Counted from the stretch's first letter, positions 8,206 to 20,548 are shown. The stretch: 64,000 nt of DNA from an uncultured Actinomycetes bacterium (GCA_963796725.1 CAWCMT010000001.1:161405-225404), one strand, 5' to 3'. A program made the numbers and translations. The notes: generated from the sequence alone by a model not told the origin.

Positions 8206-9072
8206 TCAGCTCAGCTCGCCGAGCATCCGCTGTTGCCATTCGAGCGTCGCGTTCACCTGGTTGAACGTGAACAGGTGAAGCGCCTCGATCCGAGCCGCGG
8301 GATCAACGAGGGCGTCCGCCAGCCCCAGGAGCAGCGCATCGGGACCGAACTTCCCCGGGGTCAGCAGGGAGCCGACCATCTTCCGGTTCTTCTTCAGGTA
8401 ACGCGCCGAGTCGGCGATGCCGATCCTCGCCGAGATCGTCATGAGCTTCGTGAGCTCGGCCACGCCCGGCGTGCCCAGATGCACGGGCAACGTGACCCCG
8501 ACCTCGCGCATCCTGCGCACCCATGCCGAGATGGCCGCCGGGTTGAAGCACATCTGTGTGGCCATGTATTGCGCGTACCGCTGCTTCTCCAGCAGGACCT
8601 CCAACAACCTGGCGTCGTCGATCGCGACGTGACCCTCCGGGTACGAGGGCACGCCGATCTCGGCGAAGGGATGGCCGCGCTCGTCGAGGGCGCGCAGCAG
8701 CATGAGGCCGTCATGGAAGGCACCCTTGTCCTTGGAGTCGCCTCCCACGACGAAGGCGCGCGTCAGCGATGCGGCGTGGCAACGGCCCAGGATCTCGTCC
8801 AGGTGGGCTCCGTCGCGGATCATGTGCGCGGACAGGTGCGGGATCGCGACGTGGCCCCGGGCGGCGAGCGATTCAGCCAGATCCAGGGTCGCCTCGATCC
8901 CGTGACTGGGCGACGCCGTGACGGTGACGACGGCCGTGGGAGGCAGTGCCTCCGCCTTCTCGGAGGCGTTCGTCAGCGGGATCAGCTCGAACTTGGGCGC
9001 CTGGACCAGCACCTGCAGCGCCGCGCTCTGCTCCGACGACAGGCCCGAGACCTTCCGCTTCCGCACCGCCAA
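8206..9072 (-). CDS. metF: 5,10-methylenetetrahydrofolate reductase (MetF/MTHFR family).
   Basis: The 288 aa product matches a MetF pattern (..FVVGGDSKDKGAF..LLRAL...PEGH..). Confidence 0.8.
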   Translation of the reverse strand: MAVRKRKVSGLSSEQSAALQVLVQAPKFELIPLTNASEKAEALPPTAVVTVTASPSHGIEATLDLAESLAARGHVAIPHLSAHMIRDGAHLDEILGRCHAASLTRAFVVGGDSKDKGAFHDGLMLLRALDERGHPFAEIGVPSYPEGHVAIDDARLLEVLLEKQRYAQYMATQMCFNPAAISAWVRRMREVGVTLPVHLGTPGVAELTKLMTISARIGIADSARYLKKNRKMVGSLLTPGKFGPDALLLGLADALVDPAARIEALHLFTFNQVNATLEWQQRMLGELS

Positions 9073-9087
9073 TTCCCCGCCTACCTC

Positions 9088-10632
9088 CTAGACGTTCGAG
9101 TCGGGGAAGGAGGCCTTCTGCCGCTCGATCCACTCCTGAAGTTCCTGATCCACCGCGTCCTCGATCGGCGGCGGCTCGTACTCGGCGAGCATCTTCTTCC
9201 ATATCGGGTTCGCCCGGTTAGTCGTTTCCAGTGCCCCTTCGAGCTCCCATTGCTCGAAGCTGTTGTTGTCCGCGACCGAGGACCGGTAGAACGCGGTCTC
9301 GAAGTTCGCCAGGGTGTGGGCCGTTCCGAGGAAGTGCTGGCCGGGACCGTTCTCGATGATCGCATCGATCGCCTGGCCGTTCGGAGAGAGGTCCACGCCC
9401 TTCGCGAGTTCGTGCATCATCCCGCACTGGTCGAGGTCCATCACGAACTTCTCATATCCCATGGTCAGCCCGCCCTCGAGCCAGCCCGCCGCGTGGAGCA
9501 CGAAGTTCACCCCTCCCAGGACGGTTGGCTGCAGGGTGTTGGCGGATTCGTAGGCGGCCTGCGCATCGGGGGTCTTGGCGGCCGTCAGCGAGCCACCGCT
9601 TCGGAAGGGGACGCGCAGCCGACGCGCACACGCCGCCAGGGTGTAGAGCACGAGCGCCGGCTCGGGCGTACCGAAGGTGGGTGCACCCGACTGCATCGAC
9701 ATCGACGATGCGAACGAACCGAAGACCACGGGCGCACCGGGGCGCACGAGCTGCACGTAGGCCATGCCCGCCAGCGACTCGGCGAGCGTCTGCGCCGCCG
9801 CCCCCGCCACGGTGGCAGGGCTCATGGCGCCCGCCAGGATGAACGGCGTCATGATCACGGCCTGGTTCGCCTCGGCGTAGGCTTTCGCGGCGCCGAGCAT
9901 CGACGAATCCCACACCAGCGGGGAGTTCGCGTTGATGAGGCTCAGGATGTACGTCCCCGACTCCAGCGCATCGACCCCGAACAGGATCCGAGCCATCTCC
10001 ACCGTGTCCTGGGCGCGCTGCGGATGCGTCACCGAACCCATGAACGGCTTGTCCGAGTAACGCATGTGCGCGTACACCATGTCGTAGTGCCGCTTGTTGA
10101 CGGGCAGATCCACCGGCTCGCAGACCGTGCCGCCCGAGTGGTGGAGGTAGGGCGCCGCGTACGCGAGCTTCACGAAATTGCGGAAGTCCTCGATGGTGCC
10201 GTAGCGTCGACCGCCGTCCAGGTCCCGGACGAACGGGGAGCCGTAGGCAGGCGCCAACACGGTGGCGTTCCCGCCGATCTGGACGTCGTTGGCGGGGTTC
10301 CGCGCGTGTTGCGTGAACACCTCAGGCGCGGTGGCCTGGACGAGCTGGCGGCACATCCCGCGGGGGAACCTCACCCGCTCTCCGGCGACGTCGGCGCCGG
10401 CATCTTTCCAGAGCTGCAGCGCGTCGGGCGCGCCCTTGAAGTCGATCCCCACCTCCTCCAGGATCCGGTCGGCGTTCTCCTCGATCAGGCTCAGCCCCTC
10501 CTCCGACAGAACCTCGAACGGCGTCAGGGTGCGGGTGATGAAGGGGACCCTCTCGGCAGCGCTCGCGAGACGGGCGGCGGCGCGGCCGGCGCGGCCTCCG
10601 GTCCGGCGTCCGCGCGGGGCGGTGTCGCTCAT
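9088..10632 (-). CDS. MttB-superfamily methyltransferase without pyrrolysine. I predict it is a glycine betaine (quaternary amine):corrinoid methyltransferase, MtgB-like.
   Basis: The 514 aa product shows trimethylamine methyltransferase family signatures (RTLTPFEVLSEEGLSLIEENADRILEEVGIDF ... MGSVTHPQRAQDTVEMARILFG ... HAAGWLEGGLTMGYEKFVMDLDQCGMM) and has no in-frame amber codon. Its start overlaps the ramA stop. Confidence 0.8.
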   Translation of the reverse strand: MSDTAPRGRRTGGRAGRAAARLASAAERVPFITRTLTPFEVLSEEGLSLIEENADRILEEVGIDFKGAPDALQLWKDAGADVAGERVRFPRGMCRQLVQATAPEVFTQHARNPANDVQIGGNATVLAPAYGSPFVRDLDGGRRYGTIEDFRNFVKLAYAAPYLHHSGGTVCEPVDLPVNKRHYDMVYAHMRYSDKPFMGSVTHPQRAQDTVEMARILFGVDALESGTYILSLINANSPLVWDSSMLGAAKAYAEANQAVIMTPFILAGAMSPATVAGAAAQTLAESLAGMAYVQLVRPGAPVVFGSFASSMSMQSGAPTFGTPEPALVLYTLAACARRLRVPFRSGGSLTAAKTPDAQAAYESANTLQPTVLGGVNFVLHAAGWLEGGLTMGYEKFVMDLDQCGMMHELAKGVDLSPNGQAIDAIIENGPGQHFLGTAHTLANFETAFYRSSVADNNSFEQWELEGALETTNRANPIWKKMLAEYEPPPIEDAVDQELQEWIERQKASFPDSNV

Positions 10633-12618
10633 GAACGTGCTCCTCTCGTTCGCTTGGGACGGGTGGCGGTGCGTGGCGCCGGCAGGTCGACGGCCCGAGC
10701 CAGGCGGGGCGTCGGCTCCGTGCTGTGGGGGATCCCCATCGCGCCCACGAAGTGCTCCTGGAACCGGGGTTCGATCGCGGTCTCGATCTTCTCGACCCGG
10801 CGCACGACCTCCTCGATCTCGACACGCGCGGCACGGTTCAACAGGGCGATCCGGGCCCCCGTGCCTGCCGCGTTGCCCGCGCTCGTGACGTTCTCAGGGT
10901 CGCAGTCGGGCACCAGACCCAGGACCAGGGCGTGGACCGGATCGATGTGGGCGCCGAACGCACCCGCCAGGCGGATCCGATCGACAGCCTCGATCCCGAA
11001 CCGATCCATCAACAGGCGGCAGCCCGCCCACAGCGCGGCCTTCGCGAGCTGGATCGCGCGGATATCCATCTGGGTGATGACCAGTCGGGGCGCGCCGTCG
11101 TGCAGGACGTAGGAGAACGTACGGCCCTCCGCCACGATCCTCGGCGAGCGCCCGGTCAACCCCCCGTCGATCACACCGTCGGTGCTGATGATCCCGGCCA
11201 GCAGCATCTCCGCGACGACCTCGATGATGCCCGAACCGCAGATCCCCGAGACGGCGGCCATGTCGAACCCGGGCTCGTCGGACCATCGCTCGCCGCCGAT
11301 CACCTTGAAGCGCGGCTCCAGGGTCTCGGGATCGATGCGCACCCGCTCGATCGCCCCCGGGGCGGCCCGTTGGCCACCCGAGATCTGCGCGCCCTCGAAC
11401 GCGGGGCCGGTGGGGCTGGACGCGGCGAGCAGCCGGTCCCGGTTGCCCAGCACGATCTCGGCGTTCGTCCCCACGTCGACGAGGAGGTTCACGGTGTCCT
11501 GCTCGTAGGGAGCCTCGGAGAGGATCACGCCCGCGGTGTCGGCGCCGACGTGCCCCGCGATGCACGGCAGCACGTAGACGCGTGCACCCGGGTTCGGCGC
11601 GTGGAGGTCCAACGCGGAGGCGGGGCGGCGCACGGCCTCATCGGTGGTCAACGCGAACGGGGCGCCGCCTAACTCGGTCGGATCCAGGCCGAGCAGCAGG
11701 TGATGCATGATCGGGTTGCCGACTGCCGTGAGCTCCAGCACGTCGCCGGGATCGGCGTCCGCCGCGGCGCAGAGCTCGGCGATCGAGGTCGTCGAGGCAT
11801 GCTCTGATCACGCGGGTGAGCTCGGTCTCGGCGCCGGGGTTCATCATGATGTAGCTCACGCGGCTCATGAGGTCCTCGCCGAAGCGGATCTGTGGGTTCA
11901 TCGCGCCCGCGGACGCAAGTACCTCGCCGGTGTGGAGGTCGCACAGGTGCCCCGCCACCGTCGTCGAGCCCACGTCGAACGCCACACCCAGGGCACGATC
12001 GTGGAAGCCCGGCCAGATCGCGATGATCTGGGCGCCGTCGTGCACCGCGACCGTGGTGGTCCAGTCGCCGGCCCGGAGCGTCCGCTGGAGCGACGCGAGC
12101 ACGGCGGCGTCGCACCCCAGCCCGGATAGCGACCAGTCGCGCTCGAGCGCCTCCGCGAGTCGCTGAAGATCCCCACTGGGATCCGCCATGTCGGGCTCGC
12201 GTACCTCCACGTAGTGAAGGCGCACGACCGGATCCACCTCGATCGGGTGCGCGTCAGCCTCCTTCCGCACGACCTGCCGGTGGATCTGGCTCTCGGGCGG
12301 CACGTCGACCACGAGGTCGTCCACGATCCGAGCGTGGCACCCCAGGCGCCGGTCCTCGGCGAGTCCGCTCCGATCCCGGAACTGCCGCTCGGGAGCGCTG
12401 AAGGGGGTGAGGTGATCCACCGCCGACGTGATGCCGTGCTTCGCGAACGCGCCTTCGCTCACGACGACCTGGCATCGCCCACAGATGCCGCGTCCACCAC
12501 AGACCGAATCCAGGTCGACGGCCAACTCGCGCGCGGCCGCCAGCAGGTCCGTGCCCGGCGCGAACCGGCCGCGCTTGCCCGACGGCGTGAAGACGACGAG
12601 CGCGCCCTCGTCGGTCAC
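10629..12618 (-). pseudogene. RamA/RACo-type corrinoid reductive activase (N-terminal 2Fe-2S ferredoxin plus ASKHA ATPase domain). It has one frameshift near 11790.
   Basis: The N-terminal ORF (11638..12618) carries CGGRGICGRCQV. The C-terminal ORF (10629..11741) starts LELTAVGNPIMHHLLLGLDP. Translating across the junction gives ..TRVIRA?LDDLIAELCAAADADPGDVLELTAVGNPIMHH... after a single frame change. Confidence 0.8.
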
Positions 12619-13541
12619 GACGGCGGCGCGCCCTCGGACGGTCGGCGGCGGCGACCCTCACGCCCGCCGCGGCGCCCGGACGTGGGGCCGCCCGTGGGGT
12701 CCTCGCGATAGCGGCCGATCCACGAGGCGCAGTGCTCGTCCGTGCCCATCAGGACGTCGGCGGCCATGACGGCCTGACGGACCTCCTCGTGCAGCGGGCT
12801 CGTGATCGCGCTCGTCAGGCCGTTCGCGATCGCCATGGTCAGGAACGCCCCGTTGATGCCGTTGCGGTTCGGCAGCCCGAACGAGATGTTCGACGCGCCG
12901 CACGTCGTGTTGACCCCGAGCTCCTCATGGAGGCGGCGCACGAGCGCGAACACCTGCCGGCCCGCGCCGCCCATGGCGCCGATCGGCATCACCAGCGGGT
13001 CCACGACGATGTCGTGCGCGGGGATGCCGTGGTCGGCCGCCGCGTGAACGATCTTCTCCGCGACGGCGAACCGCACGTCGGGGTCCTCGCTGATGCCGGT
13101 CTCGTCGTTCGTGATGGCGACCACCGCCGCGCCGTGTTTCGCCACCAGCGGCAGGACCTGCTCGATGCGCTCATCCTCCCCGGTGACGGAGTTCACGAGC
13201 GCCTTGCCCTGATATGCGGCGAGCCCGGCCTCCAAGGCCGCCACGATCGAGGAGTCGATCGACAGCGGCACGTCGGTGAGCGACTGCACCAGCTCGATGG
13301 TCTGAGCGAGGATCGCGGGCTCGTCGGCCAGCGGGATGCCGGCGTTGACGTCGAGCATGTGCGCGCCCGCCGCCACCTGCGCGTGCGTGTCGGCGACCAC
13401 CGTGGAGAAGTCGCCCGCCACCATCTCGGCGGCGAGTCGCTTGCGGCCGGTCGGGTTGATGCGTTCTCCGATGACGACGAACGGCCGTCCGCTGCCGATC
13501 ACGACCTCACGGGTCGCGCTGGAGACGACCGTGTCGGTCAC
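12615..13541 (-). CDS. Pterin-binding methyltetrahydrofolate:corrinoid methyltransferase (MtgA/MtrH/AcsE-like).
   Basis: The 308 aa product has a pterin-binding TIM barrel pattern (VIGERINPTG...GAHMLDVNAG...NSVTGEDER...GASNISFGLPNR). It forms an ATGA overlap with the ramA start. Confidence 0.75.
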   Translation of the reverse strand: MTDTVVSSATREVVIGSGRPFVVIGERINPTGRKRLAAEMVAGDFSTVVADTHAQVAAGAHMLDVNAGIPLADEPAILAQTIELVQSLTDVPLSIDSSIVAALEAGLAAYQGKALVNSVTGEDERIEQVLPLVAKHGAAVVAITNDETGISEDPDVRFAVAEKIVHAAADHGIPAHDIVVDPLVMPIGAMGGAGRQVFALVRRLHEELGVNTTCGASNISFGLPNRNGINGAFLTMAIANGLTSAITSPLHEEVRQAVMAADVLMGTDEHCASWIGRYREDPTGGPTSGRRGGREGRRRRPSEGAPPS

Positions 13542-13895
13542 TCAGTCCTCCTCGGATGAGGGCCGCACGGCATCGGTGTCGCCGGCGACGTCCGCCCCGC
13601 CTCTGATGCCACCGGAGCGGATCGCGGCGCGCAGGACGTCCTCGGTCCACTCGGCCTCCAGGGTCGCGGCCATGTCCGCCACCTCGGCGTCGAGGTCGTC
13701 GCCGCACGGACGGCGGTCCATCTGCATCTGCTCGGTGTAGTCGTCGGAGCCGATCAGCCCTGCGACCATCGCTGCGGCGTCGACCGCCTCCTGGAAACGC
13801 TCCGGGAGCAAGGCGCGCGCGCTCGCGCCGCCCTCGCCCCGGGCCACCAGCTGCATCGGGATGTCGCGCCACCGGATCACGGTCAACTCAGCCAT
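13542..13895 (-). CDS. Small acidic protein of unknown function with RWRD and GLIGS motifs. It may belong to the family Pfam labels 'virulence factor' (recalled from memory).
   Basis: The 117 aa ORF starts MAELTVIRWRDIPMQ and has an AAGGGA ribosome-binding site. It is tightly sandwiched between the corrinoid protein gene and the methyl-THF methyltransferase gene. Confidence 0.5.
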   Translation of the reverse strand: MAELTVIRWRDIPMQLVARGEGGASARALLPERFQEAVDAAAMVAGLIGSDDYTEQMQMDRRPCGDDLDAEVADMAATLEAEWTEDVLRAAIRSGGIRGGADVAGDTDAVRPSSEED

Positions 13896-13922
13896 ATCGT
13901 CCCTTCATCGGTCGGCTCGGCT

Positions 13923-14615
13923 TCACGAGGCCATCGCGCGCTTCGCGAGCACCAACGCCTGTGCGGTCTCGGCGGCCACGGCGGCGTCGCGGCAGTAGGC
14001 GTCGGCGCCCACCGCCTTGCCGAACTCCTCGTTCAGCGGGGCACCCCCCACCAGCACGATGTACTTGTCGCGCAGGCCCTTCGCCTCGAGCTCGTCGATC
14101 ACGACCTTCATGTAGGGCATGGTCGTCGTGAGCAGCGCGCTCATCCCCAGGATGTCCGGGTCGTGCTCCTCGAGGGCCGCCAGATAGTTCTCCACGGGAT
14201 TGTTGATGCCGAGGTCGATCACGTCGAAGCCGGCACCCTCGAGCATCATCGCTACGAGGTTCTTGCCGATGTCGTGGATGTCGCCCTTCACGGTGCCGAT
14301 CACGACGGTACCCATGCGCTCGGCACCGGTCTCCGCGAGGAGCGGACGGAGGATCGCCATCCCCGCCTTCATCGCGTTGGCGGCCAGGAGCACCTCCGGT
14401 ACGAACAGGATCCCGTCACGGAAGTCGATACCCACGATCCGCATGCCCTCTACCAGCGCCTCGTTCAGCACCCTGTCGGCGGCCCAGCCACGCCCCAGCA
14501 GGAGGTTCGTCCCCTCCACGATCTCCTCGGCGAGGCCGTCGTAGAGGTCGTCGTGCATCTGGGCGACGAGGTCGTCGTCACCGAGGGCCGACAGGTCGAT
14601 CTGCTCGTCGCTCAT
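13923..14615 (-). CDS. Cobalamin-binding corrinoid protein (MtgC/MtbC-like).
   Basis: The 230 aa product has a B12-binding motif (GTVKGDIHDIGKNLV, DxHxxG) and an N-terminal helical cap domain. Confidence 0.85.
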   Translation of the reverse strand: MSDEQIDLSALGDDDLVAQMHDDLYDGLAEEIVEGTNLLLGRGWAADRVLNEALVEGMRIVGIDFRDGILFVPEVLLAANAMKAGMAILRPLLAETGAERMGTVVIGTVKGDIHDIGKNLVAMMLEGAGFDVIDLGINNPVENYLAALEEHDPDILGMSALLTTTMPYMKVVIDELEAKGLRDKYIVLVGGAPLNEEFGKAVGADAYCRDAAVAAETAQALVLAKRAMAS

Positions 14616-17131
14616 GGTCGTTCCGTTCTCCTCGTCGCTCGTTGCCTCATGCCTTCAGGCGTTCGCCTTCGGGGTCCCACAGAGGGTCGGCGCTCACCGT
14701 CGCGGCGTGAGCGCACCCCGAAGTACTCGACCTCCACCGGCGTCCCCGCCGCGGCCAGCGCGGTCGGGAGGTAGCCGTAGACGATGCCCCGCCCGACCGA
14801 GTAGCCGTACGCCGCCGAGGTCACGTAGCTCACGACCTGGCCTTCATGCCAGATCGGCTCCTTGCCCATCGCCACGACCCGCGGATCGTCGAACGTCATG
14901 CAGGCCAGCCGGTGCGTCGGGCCGCCCTCGGCGCGGATCGCCTCCAGCGCCGCCTTGCCCTGGAACTCCTTATCCCAGCGCACCGCGAAGCCCAGCCCCG
15001 CCTCCAGCGGATCGTGCTCCGTGTGGATGTCCTGCCCCCAGAGCCGGTACCCCTTCTCCAGCCGCAGCGAGTCGAAGGCACCGCCGCCCGCCGCGATCAG
15101 TCCGTGGTCGCGACCCGCCTCCCACAAGAGATCCCAGACCCGATCCCCCATCGCCAACTGGCCGTAGAGCTCCCAGCCCAACTCGCCCGCGTAGGAGATC
15201 CGCTGCGCCCAGACCGGGTTGACCTCGCCGACGTTGAGGTAGCGCGCCGTGAGGTAGGGGAAGGCGTCGTTCGACACATCGGCGTCGGTGACCTGCTCCA
15301 GGATCGCGCGCGCGTTCGGTCCCCATAGGCCCACCGCGAACAGCGACCCGGTGCGCTCGGTGATCGTGATGTCCTCACCCGCGTGGATCTGCCGTCGGAG
15401 CCACGCAAGGTCGTGCTGGCCGCTGCCACCCCCCGTCACCACCCGGAAGAGCGCTTCGTCCTTGCGGATGACCGTGAGGTCCAGACGGATGCCGCCGCGC
15501 TCGGTGAGCGCCGCGGTGTAGACGATCGAACCCACCGGTCGGTCGATCCGATTCGCGAAGACCCGCTCGAGGAAGGAGAGCGCGTCGATCCCCGTCACGT
15601 CGAACTTCGCGAACGGCGTGATGTCGAAGAGCGCCGCGTGAGAGCGCGTCGTCAGATGCTCCGCGCCGACCTCGGGCGACCACCCCTCGGCAGCCCAGCC
15701 GCTCCGCCGGGCCCATTCGTGTGCGACGCCTCCGACCAGATCGCGGTTCGCCCGGAACCACTGCGGCCGCTCCCAGCCTGCGCCCGTGAAGAACTCCGCG
15801 CCGAGAGCCCGGTGCCGGGCGAAGAACGGCGTGAGCCGGAGGTTCCGCGGCTTCGAGGGCTGCTGGAGGGGGTGGATGATGTCGTAGACCTCTCGGTACT
15901 GCTGCTTTCCGCGCTCGATCACGTACGGCGCCGACGTCTGGAACGGGTAGAAGCGGTTGGCGTCGGCCTCGGCGAGGTCGTAGCTGGGCTCGCCCGTCTC
16001 CATCCACTCGACGACCTGGCGCGCCATACCCGCCCCGTGGGTGACCCAGACCGCCTCGCATACCCAGACGCCGCGCGCGGTTGCGCTCTCCCCCACCACG
16101 GATCCGCCGTCGGGCGTGAACGAGAACATCCCGTTCAGCGAACGTGCGGGGTCGGCGGGACGCATCTTCCCCGCGAGCACCGGGAACAGGCGTGCGGTCT
16201 CCGACTCACACAGATCGAAGTCGCGGGGGGTCCACGGCATCAACGAGGGCATGGGGCCGTCTCCGTGGCGCCGGATCGCCCCTTGGGGCGTCACGATCGG
16301 CTCGTGTCGGTAGTTGCCGACGCCGAAGTGATCCTCGCGCTGGCGGAAGTAGAGAGACATGTCCTGGTGGCGCACCACCGGCTGGTACATCCATCGATCG
16401 TGGGCCGAAGCCGCGACGTCGAGCTCCGGGATCGGGTCGGTCCAGACGAGCTGGTGCTGCACCGCCACCAGTGGGATCGGCACCCGTGCCAGCGCCCCTA
16501 CCCTCGGCCCCCATATCCCGGCGCAGATCAGGACCCGCTCGCAGTCGACGGTCCCTTGGTCCGTGTGCACCCCGTGCACGCGCCCCCCGTGGATGTCGAA
16601 CCCGGTGACCGTGACGCCACCCTCGAACGCCACGCCGCGCTCCTGAGCCGCCAGGGCGAGCGCGGTCACGAGTTGCACCGTCTTGGCGGCTCCGTCGGTG
16701 GGGACCCAGTAGGCACCGAGGATCGTGGAGGGATCCAGGAGCGGGCTCCGTTCCGCGGCCTCGGCGGGCGAGATGAGTTCGGTCCCCTCGATCCCGTAGG
16801 AACGTGCGAACCCCTGCCGTCGCTTCAGCTCCTCCATCCGCTCGGGCGTGGTGGCGACCTCCATGCCGCCGGTGCCGTACCAGCAGCGCTCCCCGTCGAG
16901 TTCGACGGAGTCGTAGAGCGCCACGGAGTCCTGCGCGATGCGGCACATGGTCCGCGAGCCGTTCGTCTGGAAGATGATGCCGGGGGCGTGCGAGGTGGAT
17001 CCGCCCGTCGCGAAGAGCGGTCCCTGGTCCACGACGAGCACATCGGTGACGCCCAACTCCGAGAGGTGGTAGGCGGCAGAGACACCGACGATCCCGGCGC
17101 CGATGATCACCGTCTGGGCACGTTCTCGCAT
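14612..17131 (-). CDS. Dimethylglycine dehydrogenase/oxidase family (FAD oxidoreductase plus GcvT folate domain). The last ~20 codons appear frameshifted: the native C-terminus is likely ..ATVSADPLWDPEGERLKA* with a stop at 14647.
   Basis: It begins MRERAQTVIIGAGIVGVSAAYHL and carries the DMGO/DMGDH signature HFGVGNYRHEP. The C-terminal GcvT_C tail is recovered in the +1 frame. Confidence 0.8.
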   Translation of the reverse strand: MRERAQTVIIGAGIVGVSAAYHLSELGVTDVLVVDQGPLFATGGSTSHAPGIIFQTNGSRTMCRIAQDSVALYDSVELDGERCWYGTGGMEVATTPERMEELKRRQGFARSYGIEGTELISPAEAAERSPLLDPSTILGAYWVPTDGAAKTVQLVTALALAAQERGVAFEGGVTVTGFDIHGGRVHGVHTDQGTVDCERVLICAGIWGPRVGALARVPIPLVAVQHQLVWTDPIPELDVAASAHDRWMYQPVVRHQDMSLYFRQREDHFGVGNYRHEPIVTPQGAIRRHGDGPMPSLMPWTPRDFDLCESETARLFPVLAGKMRPADPARSLNGMFSFTPDGGSVVGESATARGVWVCEAVWVTHGAGMARQVVEWMETGEPSYDLAEADANRFYPFQTSAPYVIERGKQQYREVYDIIHPLQQPSKPRNLRLTPFFARHRALGAEFFTGAGWERPQWFRANRDLVGGVAHEWARRSGWAAEGWSPEVGAEHLTTRSHAALFDITPFAKFDVTGIDALSFLERVFANRIDRPVGSIVYTAALTERGGIRLDLTVIRKDEALFRVVTGGGSGQHDLAWLRRQIHAGEDITITERTGSLFAVGLWGPNARAILEQVTDADVSNDAFPYLTARYLNVGEVNPVWAQRISYAGELGWELYGQLAMGDRVWDLLWEAGRDHGLIAAGGGAFDSLRLEKGYRLWGQDIHTEHDPLEAGLGFAVRWDKEFQGKAALEAIRAEGGPTHRLACMTFDDPRVVAMGKEPIWHEGQVVSYVTSAAYGYSVGRGIVYGYLPTALAAAGTPVEVEYFGVRSRRDGERRPSVGPRRRTPEGMRQRATRRTERP

Positions 17132-18123: not shown

Positions 18124-20548
18124 ATGAAGGATCGGTACCAGGTCGTCGTGATCGGCGGCGGCATCGTCGGGTGCAGTGTGCTGTACCACCTGACGCTGCG
18201 CGGACTCACCGACGCCGCACTCATCGAGCGTGAGGAGCTCACCGCCGGATCCACCTGGCACGCCGCCGGCGGGTTCCACGCGATGAACTCGGACACCCGG
18301 ATCGCGGCGCTGCAGAAGTACACGATCGGGCTGTATCCCCAGGTCGAGGAGGAGTCCGGTCAGAGCGCGGGCCTGCACATGTCCGGAGGTATGGAGCTCG
18401 CCGAGACGCCCGAGCGCTGGCACTGGCTACGGTCCGAGCTCCAGTGGCTCCGCACCCAGGACACCGACGCCCACCTCCTCACGCCGGGGGAGGCCGTCGA
18501 CCTGGTGCCCATCATGGACCCCACCGGCCTCTACGGGGCGCTCTTCGACCCGCTGGAGGGCAACCTGGATCCGAACGGTGCGACGCAGGCCTACGCGGGA
18601 GCTGCCCGCAAGCGCGGTGCCGAGGTGATCCAGCACGACCGAGTCGTGTCGCTGACGCGCCTGTCGAGCGGAGAGTGGCGCGTCGAGACCGAACGGGGCG
18701 ACGTCATCGCCGAGCACGTGGTCAACGCGGCCGGTCTGTGGGCCCGGCGGGTGGGCCGGATGGTGGGCGTCGATCACCCGCTCGTGCCGATGCCCCACCA
18801 CTACCTCGTGACCGACGAGATCCCGCAGATCGCGGCGATCGAGGGCGACATGCCCGCCGTCACCGATCTCGAGGGCTTCACCTACCTCCAGAAGGAGGGC
18901 CGCGGCATCCTGTTGGGCGTCTACGAACAGCATCCGCGCCACTGGATGGTCGAGGGGGCGGACTGGGACTTCGGCCGGACCCTGTTCCCCGAGGAGCTCG
19001 ACCGGATCATGCCCGAGCTCTCGATCGGTTTCCGGCGGTTCCCCGTGCTGGAGGGAACCGGCATCCGCCGTTGGGTCAACGGAGCCTTCACGTTCACCCC
19101 TGATGGCAACCCCCTCGTGGGGCCCGTCGACGGGATCCCCAACTACTGGGCGGCCTGCGGCGTCATGGCGGGCTTCTCGCAGTGCGCCGGCATCGGCCTC
19201 GCGCTCGCGAACTGGATCGTGGACGGCGACCCCGGCTACGACGTGTTCGGGATGGATGTCGCCCGGTTCGGTCCCTACGCCTCGAACGATCGTTACCTGC
19301 GCGACATGACCGCGCAGTTCTACGCACGCCGGTTCGTCATGGCCTATCCGAACGAGGAACTGCCGGCCGGGCGACCGCTCAAGACCACCCCTTGCTACGA
19401 CCAGCTCCTCGCCGCCGGCGCCCGGTTCACGGTGAACTGGGGCCTGGAGGTGCCGCTCTACTTCGCGCCGACGGCCGACTTCGAGGAGAACGACACCCTC
19501 GGCCGTTCGAACGCCGAACCGATCGTGGGCGAGGAGGTCGAGGCGGTTCGCACCACCGCCGGCGCGTACGAGATCGCGCAGTACGCGCGGTACGAGGTGG
19601 CCGGCCCCGGCGCCGAGGCGTGGCTCGACCACCTGCTCGCCGGGCGCATCCCCGCCACAGGAGCGATCCGGCTGTCACCCATGCTCAACGAGAACGGACG
19701 CCTGGTGGGCGACCTCTCGGTCTCGCGACTCGACGAGGAGCGGTTCTGGCTCACCGGCTCGTACTACCTCCAGGACTGGCACCTAGCGGTGGTTGCGCGC
19801 GCAACTACCTCCGAGCGGCGTGGTCCTCACCAACGTCACCGACGACTGGATGGGGTTCTCGGTCTCCGGCCCTGCATCCCGCGCGATACTGGCCGACCTC
19901 GCCCACGAGGACGTCTCGAACGACGCGTTCGGGTTCCTCCGGATCCGTCGGATGGACGTGGGCAGCGCTCAGGCGGTGGTAGGCCGCATCTCGCTCACCG
20001 GCGAGCTCGGCTACGAGATCGTGGTGCCGTCGACGCGGCACCGTACCTTGCTGAAGGAGCTCCGCGAGGCGGGCGCGGCGCACGGCCTCCGTCTCATCGG
20101 CGACCGCGCGATCGACAGCCTCCGTCTGGAGAAGGGCTACGGGATCTGGTCCGCGGAGTTCCGCCAGGACTACACGCCGGCGATGTCGGGCCTCGACCGA
20201 TTCGTGGCGTTCGACAAGGGCGACTTCATCGGGGTGGACGCCGTGCGCAAGGCGCGCGAGGAGGGCCCGGCCCAGCGCCTCGTGCTGCTGGAGGTCGACG
20301 CTACCGATGCCGACGCCTCTGCCGACGAGGGCATCTGGATCGACGACCTGCGTGTTGGATCCGTGACCTCCGGCGCCTACGGTCACCACGTCGGCAAGAG
20401 CCTCGCGCTCGCCTACATCGATCGCGAGGTCGTCGGATCGGCAGCCGAGGTCACCGTGTTCGTGGTGGGCGAGCCCCGCGCCGCACGGATCCTCCCCGAG
20501 GTCCCCTACGACCCGATGGGCAACCGGCTCCGCGACCGCGTGGCGTGA
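18124..20548 (+). pseudogene. Second DMG/sarcosine dehydrogenase-family paralog (FAD plus GcvT domain), with one frameshift near 19795.
   Basis: It begins MKDRYQVVVIGGGIVGCSVLYHL and runs ...ERFWLTGSYYLQDWHL. The GcvT domain continues in another frame (19793..20548: ...GFSVSGPASRAIL...PYDPMGNRLRDRVA*). Confidence 0.75.

Follow-up and report, generated by a model that had tools for sequence, protein, structure and literature searches.

A run of genes for cobalamin-dependent methyl transfer in a 64-kb stretch of actinobacterial DNA (hereafter the window) contains, between the genes for its corrinoid protein and its methyltetrahydrofolate (methyl-THF):corrinoid methyltransferase, a small gene whose homologues are often annotated as 'virulence factor'. 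Does its product take part in methyl transfer and, if so, with which protein does it work? The first-pass annotation had assigned the product no function and had suggested an accessory of corrinoid methyltransferase systems, for example a chaperone or protection factor for the cobalt centre in an aerobic host. Since genes of its family, Pfam PF13769, lie almost always in clusters of genes for B12-dependent methyltransferases, in several phyla, the protein is probably an overlooked helper of the B12-dependent methyltransferase system.

The operon around the small gene

The small gene is located in one operon with genes for an MttB-family methyltransferase, a corrinoid protein, a methyl-THF:corrinoid methyltransferase (pterin methyltransferase) and a RACo/RamA-type activase (Table 1). 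The best NCBIfam match of the corrinoid protein is the glycine-betaine corrinoid protein MtgC, below that model's cut-off. The MttB gene is an uninterrupted ORF of 514 aa with no in-frame amber codon. Sarcosine oxidase genes come after the same-strand run in the window, and close relatives also have choline dehydrogenase, betaine aldehyde dehydrogenase and an OpuA-type transporter. The locus is an island for the breakdown of choline via glycine betaine and dimethylglycine to sarcosine, with a cobalamin route for the first demethylation. A search of the window for a cobalamin riboswitch or other regulatory RNA found none.

Table 1. Coordinates of the operon features and of two further matches in the window
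Feature	Position	Strand	Evidence or remark
Second dimethylglycine-dehydrogenase-like gene	18124..20467	+	changes frame (see text)
Dimethylglycine oxidase/dehydrogenase-like (DAO + FAO_M + GCV_T)	14612..17131	-	Pfam; first gene of the same-strand run
Corrinoid (cobalamin-binding) protein, MtgC-like	13923..14615	-	PF02607 + PF02310
Shine-Dalgarno-like GAAGGGA	13900..13906	-	4 nt 5' of the ATG of the small gene; read from the sequence
PF13769 ('Virulence_fact') small gene	13542..13895	-	ATG...TGA ORF, 117 codons
Putative Shine-Dalgarno GAGGAGGA of the pterin methyltransferase GTG	13546..13553	-	within the last codons of the small gene (GAG GAG GAC); read from the sequence
Methyl-THF:corrinoid methyltransferase (MtgA/MtgD-like, pterin-binding)	12615..13541	-	PF00809; NCBIfam PRK07535, 356 bits (cut-off 259)
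RACo/RamA-type ATP-dependent reductive activase (2Fe-2S + linker + middle + ASKHA)	10629..12618	-	Pfam on two ORFs
MttB-superfamily methyltransferase, glycine-betaine-type MtgB candidate	9088..10632	-	PF06253, 758 bits
Rfam PYLIS_3 match	9489..9588	-	39.4 bits (gathering score 38)
Methylenetetrahydrofolate reductase (MTHFR)	8206..9072	-	PF02219

Three irregularities were seen in this part of the window. One extra base near 11784 breaks the RACo gene into two ORFs that overlap. When the RACo orthologue of locus L084 (the loci are described below) is aligned to the window, its residues 1-279 fall in one frame and 280-661 in another; this orthologue and that of L001 are uninterrupted (663-670 aa). 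Either the gene has recently become a pseudogene, or the assembly is wrong at this point. The second dimethylglycine-dehydrogenase-like gene, compared with the window's own dimethylglycine oxidase, passes from frame 1 to frame 2 around 19750-19790. Two such changes within ~10 kb suggest that errors of sequencing or assembly are the cause; the related long-read contigs L082, L083 and L086 show errors of this kind. Finally, the match to PYLIS_3, the pyrrolysine insertion sequence of mttB, lies inside the amber-less MttB gene and probably reflects coding-sequence homology, not a working PYLIS element.

The small ORF is a gene

The 117-codon ORF is a real gene. Its GC content at codon positions 1, 2 and 3 (0.746, 0.508 and 0.915) is like that of the flanking genes, such as the pterin methyltransferase gene (0.706, 0.495 and 0.942), in a window with 68.8% GC. 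Pairwise dN/dS values (Nei-Gojobori) against the four relatives for which DNA was fetched are 0.15-0.49; the gene is under purifying selection. The first-pass annotation had made its reading depend on a coding signal comparable with that of the neighbours, and such a signal is present. High-GC genomes yield many long spurious ORFs, and the several ORFs that overlap the small gene in other frames are this usual noise; the reading of the small ORF itself as a chance ORF in GC-rich DNA is refuted by its codon pattern, by dN/dS below 0.5, by 449 homologues and 723 clusters at 50% identity, and by a confident predicted fold.

The start codon is supported by the homologues, which start at the same position. 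The product is acidic, as first described (pI 4.17; 25 D + E vs 11 K + R), and the ribosome-binding site noticed at that time, GAAGGGA, lies inside the 27-nt spacer between the stop codon of the corrinoid protein gene and the small gene. At its other end the small gene directly adjoins the GTG start of the pterin methyltransferase gene (TGAGTG). With GAGGAGGA as the Shine-Dalgarno sequence of that GTG, the junction suggests that the two genes are translationally coupled. The earlier statement that the gene occupies the only non-overlapping slot of the module is roughly right given the spacer before it, but its stop codon abuts the next start, and the MttB/MTHFR junction also has a 15-nt gap.

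Family membership and conservation

The first-pass annotation had named a Pfam family of the 'virulence factor' type, and the HMM search bore this out: hmmscan matched the 117-aa protein to PF13769 ('Virulence_fact'; E = 2.9e-13, 50.4 bits, cut-off 25) over residues 9-90, i.e. profile positions 3-79 of 81. The same family was matched by 56 of 56 diverse relatives, and no second Pfam family was consistent among their weak matches. NCBIfam has no model for the protein, and a profile search of PDB sequences gave no match below E = 0.24.

A word-indexed search of 5.8 billion proteins detected 449 homologues. The best 120 of these all share at least 69% identity with the window protein. Nearly all have 100-125 aa (range 102-144), and their sources are Actinomycetota metagenome-assembled genomes and metagenomes; the names given there are 'virulence factor', 'cvfA/B/C family virulence factor' and 'hypothetical protein'. 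A profile search of 1.84 billion cluster representatives produced 723 clusters at E <= 1e-3, almost all of stand-alone proteins of ~100 aa. In the literature searched we found neither a paper assigning PF13769 a function nor evidence behind the name 'virulence factor'. PF13769 is a catalogued but uncharacterised family, and the window protein is a further member of it.

P13 and A42 are the sole residues shared by all of 56 divergent members, while W9, R10, D11, I12, Q15, V16, L30, R33, F34, A37, D39, A41, Y53, L88 and G96 are conserved in at least 90%. No Cys or His is found among the invariant or near-invariant columns of these 56 members, i.e. there is no conserved metal-ligand or redox-carrier pattern. 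The window protein shares the length class (~100 aa), both invariant residues and the W-R-D-I-P-x-Q-V motif, and differs from the family in no notable feature of sequence or structure; in the actinobacterial clade, to which it belongs, the proteins have in addition an acidic, disordered tail and a GLIGSDDY stretch peculiar to this clade. Of the two motifs that had been singled out at first, RWRD is present and forms part of the family-wide motif; GLIGS is present as well, but is conserved only within the actinobacterial clade.

Predicted structure

The AlphaFold2 model of the 117-aa protein, built with 33 sequences, is a single compact domain (mean pLDDT 82.3, pTM 0.70). Strands are modelled at residues 2-9, 12-19 and 25-29, followed by a helix (32-44), a short helix (52-55), a strand (57-64) and two helices (68-82 and 85-93); a folded alpha/beta core (1-98) is predicted to precede a disordered tail (99-117). 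In the model the WRDIP motif forms the first hairpin turn and the R33/F34/D39 group lies on the first helix. A Foldseek search of the PDB with the model gave no match at E <= 1e-3, i.e. no solved structural relative, and the predicted fold suggests no mechanism by analogy. A compact single domain with no conserved Cys or His would fit an adaptor or chaperone better than an enzyme or a redox protein.

Conservation of the gene neighbourhood

To retrieve loci through the small protein alone, the peptide pattern WRDIPAQV was scanned over 185,579 species genomes. The PF13769 gene was detected in at least 595 of them (595 of 600 listed stretches were confirmed). The best 80 of these loci were annotated by tblastn with the window's proteins and one DUF1638 (PF07796) sequence; they span Rhizobiales, Rhodospirillales, SAR116, Kiloniellales, Geminicoccaceae, Steroidobacteraceae and other Gammaproteobacteria. 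At least one corrinoid-system partner is found beside the PF13769 gene in 79 of these 80 proteobacterial loci. Four actinobacterial relatives, L001 (small protein 85% identical) and L082, L083 and L084 (69-73%), have genes for dimethylglycine oxidase, corrinoid protein, PF13769, pterin methyltransferase, RACo and MttB in the same order as the window. The neighbourhood beside corrinoid and MttB genes, whose loss in related genomes had been named as the test of the accessory reading, is therefore kept in both groups. Overall, the gene was found in Actinomycetota and in Alpha-, Beta- and Gammaproteobacteria, and all identified carriers belong to aerobic or facultative lineages.

The typical proteobacterial order is a divergent MttB gene, then genes for the corrinoid protein, DUF1638, PF13769, a MetV-like protein, MetF, pterin methyltransferase and RACo. 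Public annotation of Sinorhizobium meliloti and of an Azoarcus KH32C plasmid bears this order out, listing corrinoid protein, DUF1638, 'virulence factor', MetV-like protein, MetF, pterin methyltransferase and ASKHA protein. Partners within 7.5 kb were counted in 62 proteobacterial and actinobacterial loci with at least 7.5 kb of flank on each side. The corrinoid protein was the most constant (60 of 62 loci), followed by RACo (58), pterin methyltransferase (55), DUF1638 (53), MTHFR/MetV (49) and MttB (42). In some genomes the cluster is split: in L002, L011 and L021 the PF13769 gene stays with the corrinoid protein and DUF1638 genes and no RACo gene is nearby, and in L004, L024 and L049 it stays with RACo; no split cluster among the long-flank loci has it with MTHFR alone. 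A DUF1638 gene next to the PF13769 gene is absent in L001, in L082-L084 and in the SAR116 loci, and tblastn of the 64-kb window with two DUF1638 proteins gave nothing better than E = 0.5. As the PF13769 gene is kept in all these cases, it is independent of DUF1638. The placement beside genes for corrinoid protein, pterin methyltransferase, RACo and MttB is conserved far beyond chance.

Several loci showed other features. The sole one of the 80 without a corrinoid-system neighbour is L043, where the PF13769 gene (10001-10288) lies upstream of purH (10580-12178), the gene for AICAR transformylase/IMP cyclohydrolase, a folate-dependent enzyme. In L086 (4691-9254) a PF13769-RACo pair and a fragmented classical metH (S-methyl_trans, Pterin_bind, B12-binding_2 and Met_synt_B12 domains) are arranged head-to-head, which hints at a role of the pair with full-length methionine synthase as well. 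Between the genes for pterin methyltransferase and RACo, Rhizobiaceae have a further small ORF of 112-117 aa [L045, 13048-13401 (+); L087, 12058-12396 (+)]; it is annotated 'hypothetical protein', has no Pfam match, was tblastn-positive in 6 loci and may be a second unknown accessory. In L087, from S. meliloti, a BA14K-family gene [8227-8694 (-)] is the immediate upstream neighbour of the 'virulence factor' gene and is read from the other strand; BA14K is a family of Brucella immunoreactive proteins.

Candidate partners

The PF13769 protein very probably functions in the cobalamin methyl-transfer module, and this link is about as strong as genomic context allows. Three kinds of evidence bear on the partner within the module: adjacency, mirror-tree correlation and gene fusion.

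Genes next to the PF13769 gene were counted in 88 loci. Directly downstream on the same strand we found a MetV-like gene in 44 loci, a gene annotated as MTHFR in 16 and one as MetF in 2; pterin methyltransferase follows in 12 loci and RACo in 4. Directly upstream, DUF1638 is the neighbour in 37 loci and the corrinoid protein in 10. In the mirror-tree analysis pairwise protein distances were compared across loci by partial correlation, with the mean of the other families as control variable; significance was assessed by matrix permutation. The corrinoid protein had the highest correlation with PF13769 of all partners (partial r 0.48-0.58, permutation p <= 0.0015, six subsets). As positive controls, the two RACo parts, RACoN and RACoC, gave 0.46-0.68 and MetV-MetF 0.50. 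Values for MetF were 0.21-0.40 and for MetV ~0; for RACo, pterin methyltransferase and DUF1638 they were mostly <= 0.18. Other pairs are correlated too (corrinoid protein-MetF, 0.46; pterin methyltransferase-RACoN, 0.55), so the signal may reflect co-inherited or co-transferred gene blocks instead of physical contact.

Ten long PF13769 matches were examined as 'Rosetta stone' fusion candidates. Six (P0183, P0189, P0208, P0221, P0260 and P0270) were rejected as frameshift read-throughs with Arg-rich junk. P0163 and P0271, in which an ORF runs from the small protein into RACo, have clean junctions but are single-member and truncated (P0163 ends on a 977-nt contig, P0271 comes from an error-rich long-read assembly); they were not accepted as fusions and were kept solely as adjacency evidence. 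Two metagenomic proteins, each an isolated single-member cluster, look clean and genuine: P0190 (344 aa), a DUF1638-PF13769 fusion, and P0128 (214 aa), a tandem duplication of the PF13769 domain, which may hint at a function as a dimer.

Proposed role

Tentatively, and at somewhat below an even chance, we read the PF13769 protein as a cofactor-less adaptor or chaperone of the corrinoid protein, acting in cobalamin loading, shielding or hand-over to RACo, with both partner and role deduced from genomic and structural context. Three features lead to this reading: the protein is small and compact, with no metal ligands or nucleotide motifs; the corrinoid protein is both its most constant neighbour and its best co-varying partner; and its gene travels with the genes of both reactivation proteins, RACo and DUF1638. 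The protein would be a small, soluble alpha/beta accessory subunit of a module of MttB/MtgB, corrinoid protein, methyl-THF methyltransferase and RACo, which in the window would demethylate glycine betaine. Its most likely mode of action would be binding to the corrinoid protein, presumably through the conserved hairpin/helix face (W9-R10-D11-I12-P13, Q15, R33-F34, D39 and Y53). Bound in this way, it would keep cobalamin usable by assisting its loading, by shielding a reactive Co state or by presenting the oxidised protein to RACo and, where DUF1638 is present, to DUF1638 as well.

Some observations do not fit well. The gene directly downstream of PF13769 most often codes for an MTHFR component, not for the corrinoid protein; the gene in L043 stands alone next to purH; and the mirror-tree signal may stem from co-transferred gene blocks. 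Moreover, the genetic screens of split methionine synthase that found the RamA-like and DUF1638 genes did not report PF13769 (PMC5764234), and the 2025 study of MtgBCD does not mention it (PMC12478193).

The downstream genes speak for a different partner. The protein could be a partner or adaptor of MTHFR (MetF with the MetV-like zinc-ribbon subunit) in methyl-THF oxidation, and might couple the pterin methyltransferase to MetF. Besides their frequency as next gene, the MetV-like genes overlap the PF13769 gene start to stop in S. meliloti and abut it in Azoarcus; the partial correlation with MetF is 0.21-0.40, and purH, the neighbour of the one solitary copy, codes for a folate enzyme. This partnership is nevertheless unlikely. 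MTHFR is missing within 7.5 kb in 12 of the 62 long-flank loci, the corrinoid protein in only 2; the correlation with MetV is near zero; and the pterin methyltransferase gene comes next in the window as in each of the four actinobacterial relatives, with MTHFR several genes further on (4.5 kb in the window).

We give just as little weight to a role as adaptor of the RACo/RamA-type activase, e.g. in docking its 2Fe-2S domain to the physiological electron donor or in gating the ATP-dependent cycle. RACo is a neighbour in 58 of the 62 long-flank loci, it follows the PF13769 gene directly in four loci, the pair in L086 neighbours a classical metH where a separate corrinoid protein is lacking, and the ORFs of P0163 and P0271 join the two proteins cleanly. 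These two ORFs are, however, single-member and truncated, and most other apparent fusions are frameshift artefacts; the mirror-tree correlations with the RACo halves are mostly <= 0.18 and not significant; and in L002, L011 and L021 the gene is kept with corrinoid protein and DUF1638 genes where RACo is absent nearby.

A regulatory switch, setting either the direction of methyl flow (betaine demethylation vs methionine synthesis) or the expression of the operon, is very improbable. A small, acidic protein with a disordered tail would be compatible with it, and the aerobic system is reported to be bidirectional via shared MtgC/MtgD (PMC12478193). However, no DNA-binding or known signalling domain was detected by Pfam in the 117-aa protein and 56 relatives, the gene is embedded in a catabolic operon within which it appears translationally coupled, and it is kept in actinobacterial clusters with no methionine-synthase module seen nearby.

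There is next to no probability that PF13769 deserves its name and has nothing to do with the genes around it, either as a true virulence factor or as one of the staphylococcal CvfA/B/C proteins: all that speaks for this is the database names, while the carriers are free-living soil, marine and freshwater bacteria, 79 of 80 loci place the gene in a setting of osmolyte catabolism, and no supporting paper was found in the literature searched. CvfA is RNase Y (KH/HD domains) and CvfB an S1/winged-helix protein; no Pfam family besides PF13769 matches the window protein, or its 56 relatives consistently.

Comparison with known systems

The corrinoid-protein adaptor proposed here has a close parallel in DUF1638, which the split B12-dependent methionine synthase of Phaeobacter inhibens requires alongside a RamA-like activase (Price et al. 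2018, PMC5764234). Both are small accessory proteins with no known mechanism, encoded beside a corrinoid protein gene and co-occurring with RACo/RamA. The two families have no sequence relationship, and DUF1638 has a mutant phenotype, whereas none is on record for PF13769.

The aerobic glycine betaine route of Ruegeria consists of MtgBCD, RamA and DUF1638 (Mausz et al. 2025, PMC12478193). The window has the same set of components (MttB-family MtgB, corrinoid MtgC, pterin-binding MtgD, RamA/RACo and MetF), which sits among genes for choline, betaine, dimethylglycine and sarcosine. In contrast to the window, the published system lists no PF13769 component (PMC12478193); its host is proteobacterial, whereas the window's is actinobacterial and DUF1638 is absent.

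RamA/RACo is, like PF13769, an accessory to this class of corrinoid methyltransferases encoded in the same operon, but RACo is a protein of 660-680 aa with a 2Fe-2S domain and an ASKHA ATPase, whereas PF13769 has ~100 aa and neither cluster-binding cysteines nor a nucleotide-binding motif. The AdoMet-binding activation domain of MetH (PF02965) plays the same general part, that of an extra module rescuing oxidised cobalamin; the window protein has no Pfam match to this domain and no structural match to solved MetH (Foldseek of the PDB, PDB profile search).

Taken as a statement about the whole family, PF13769 could be an unrecognised further component of the cobalamin methyltransferase systems of oxygen-exposed bacteria (MtgBCD, split methionine synthase) that binds the corrinoid protein and is needed for its loading, its shielding or its hand-over to RACo-driven repair. 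We regard this wider proposal as possible, though a little less likely than the adaptor role as such.

Significance

It was not until 2025 that cobalamin-dependent demethylation of glycine betaine was seen to be a major route in marine aerobic bacteria (PMC12478193). PF13769 is a concrete and cheaply testable candidate for a missing part that would sustain the oxygen-sensitive Co(I) cycle in air. Although present in at least 595 species genomes, the family is labelled 'virulence factor' and is absent from published models. Its link to corrinoid methyltransferases is likewise absent from the literature searched, while any gene-neighbourhood browser would show it; to a specialist it is a useful, testable lead and no surprise. 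If PF13769 is a component of aerobic B12 methyltransferases, this would help to explain how aerobes can operate an enzyme system with super-reduced Co(I). A new family name would then be needed, and it would mean fewer false virulence calls in genome and metagenome annotation.
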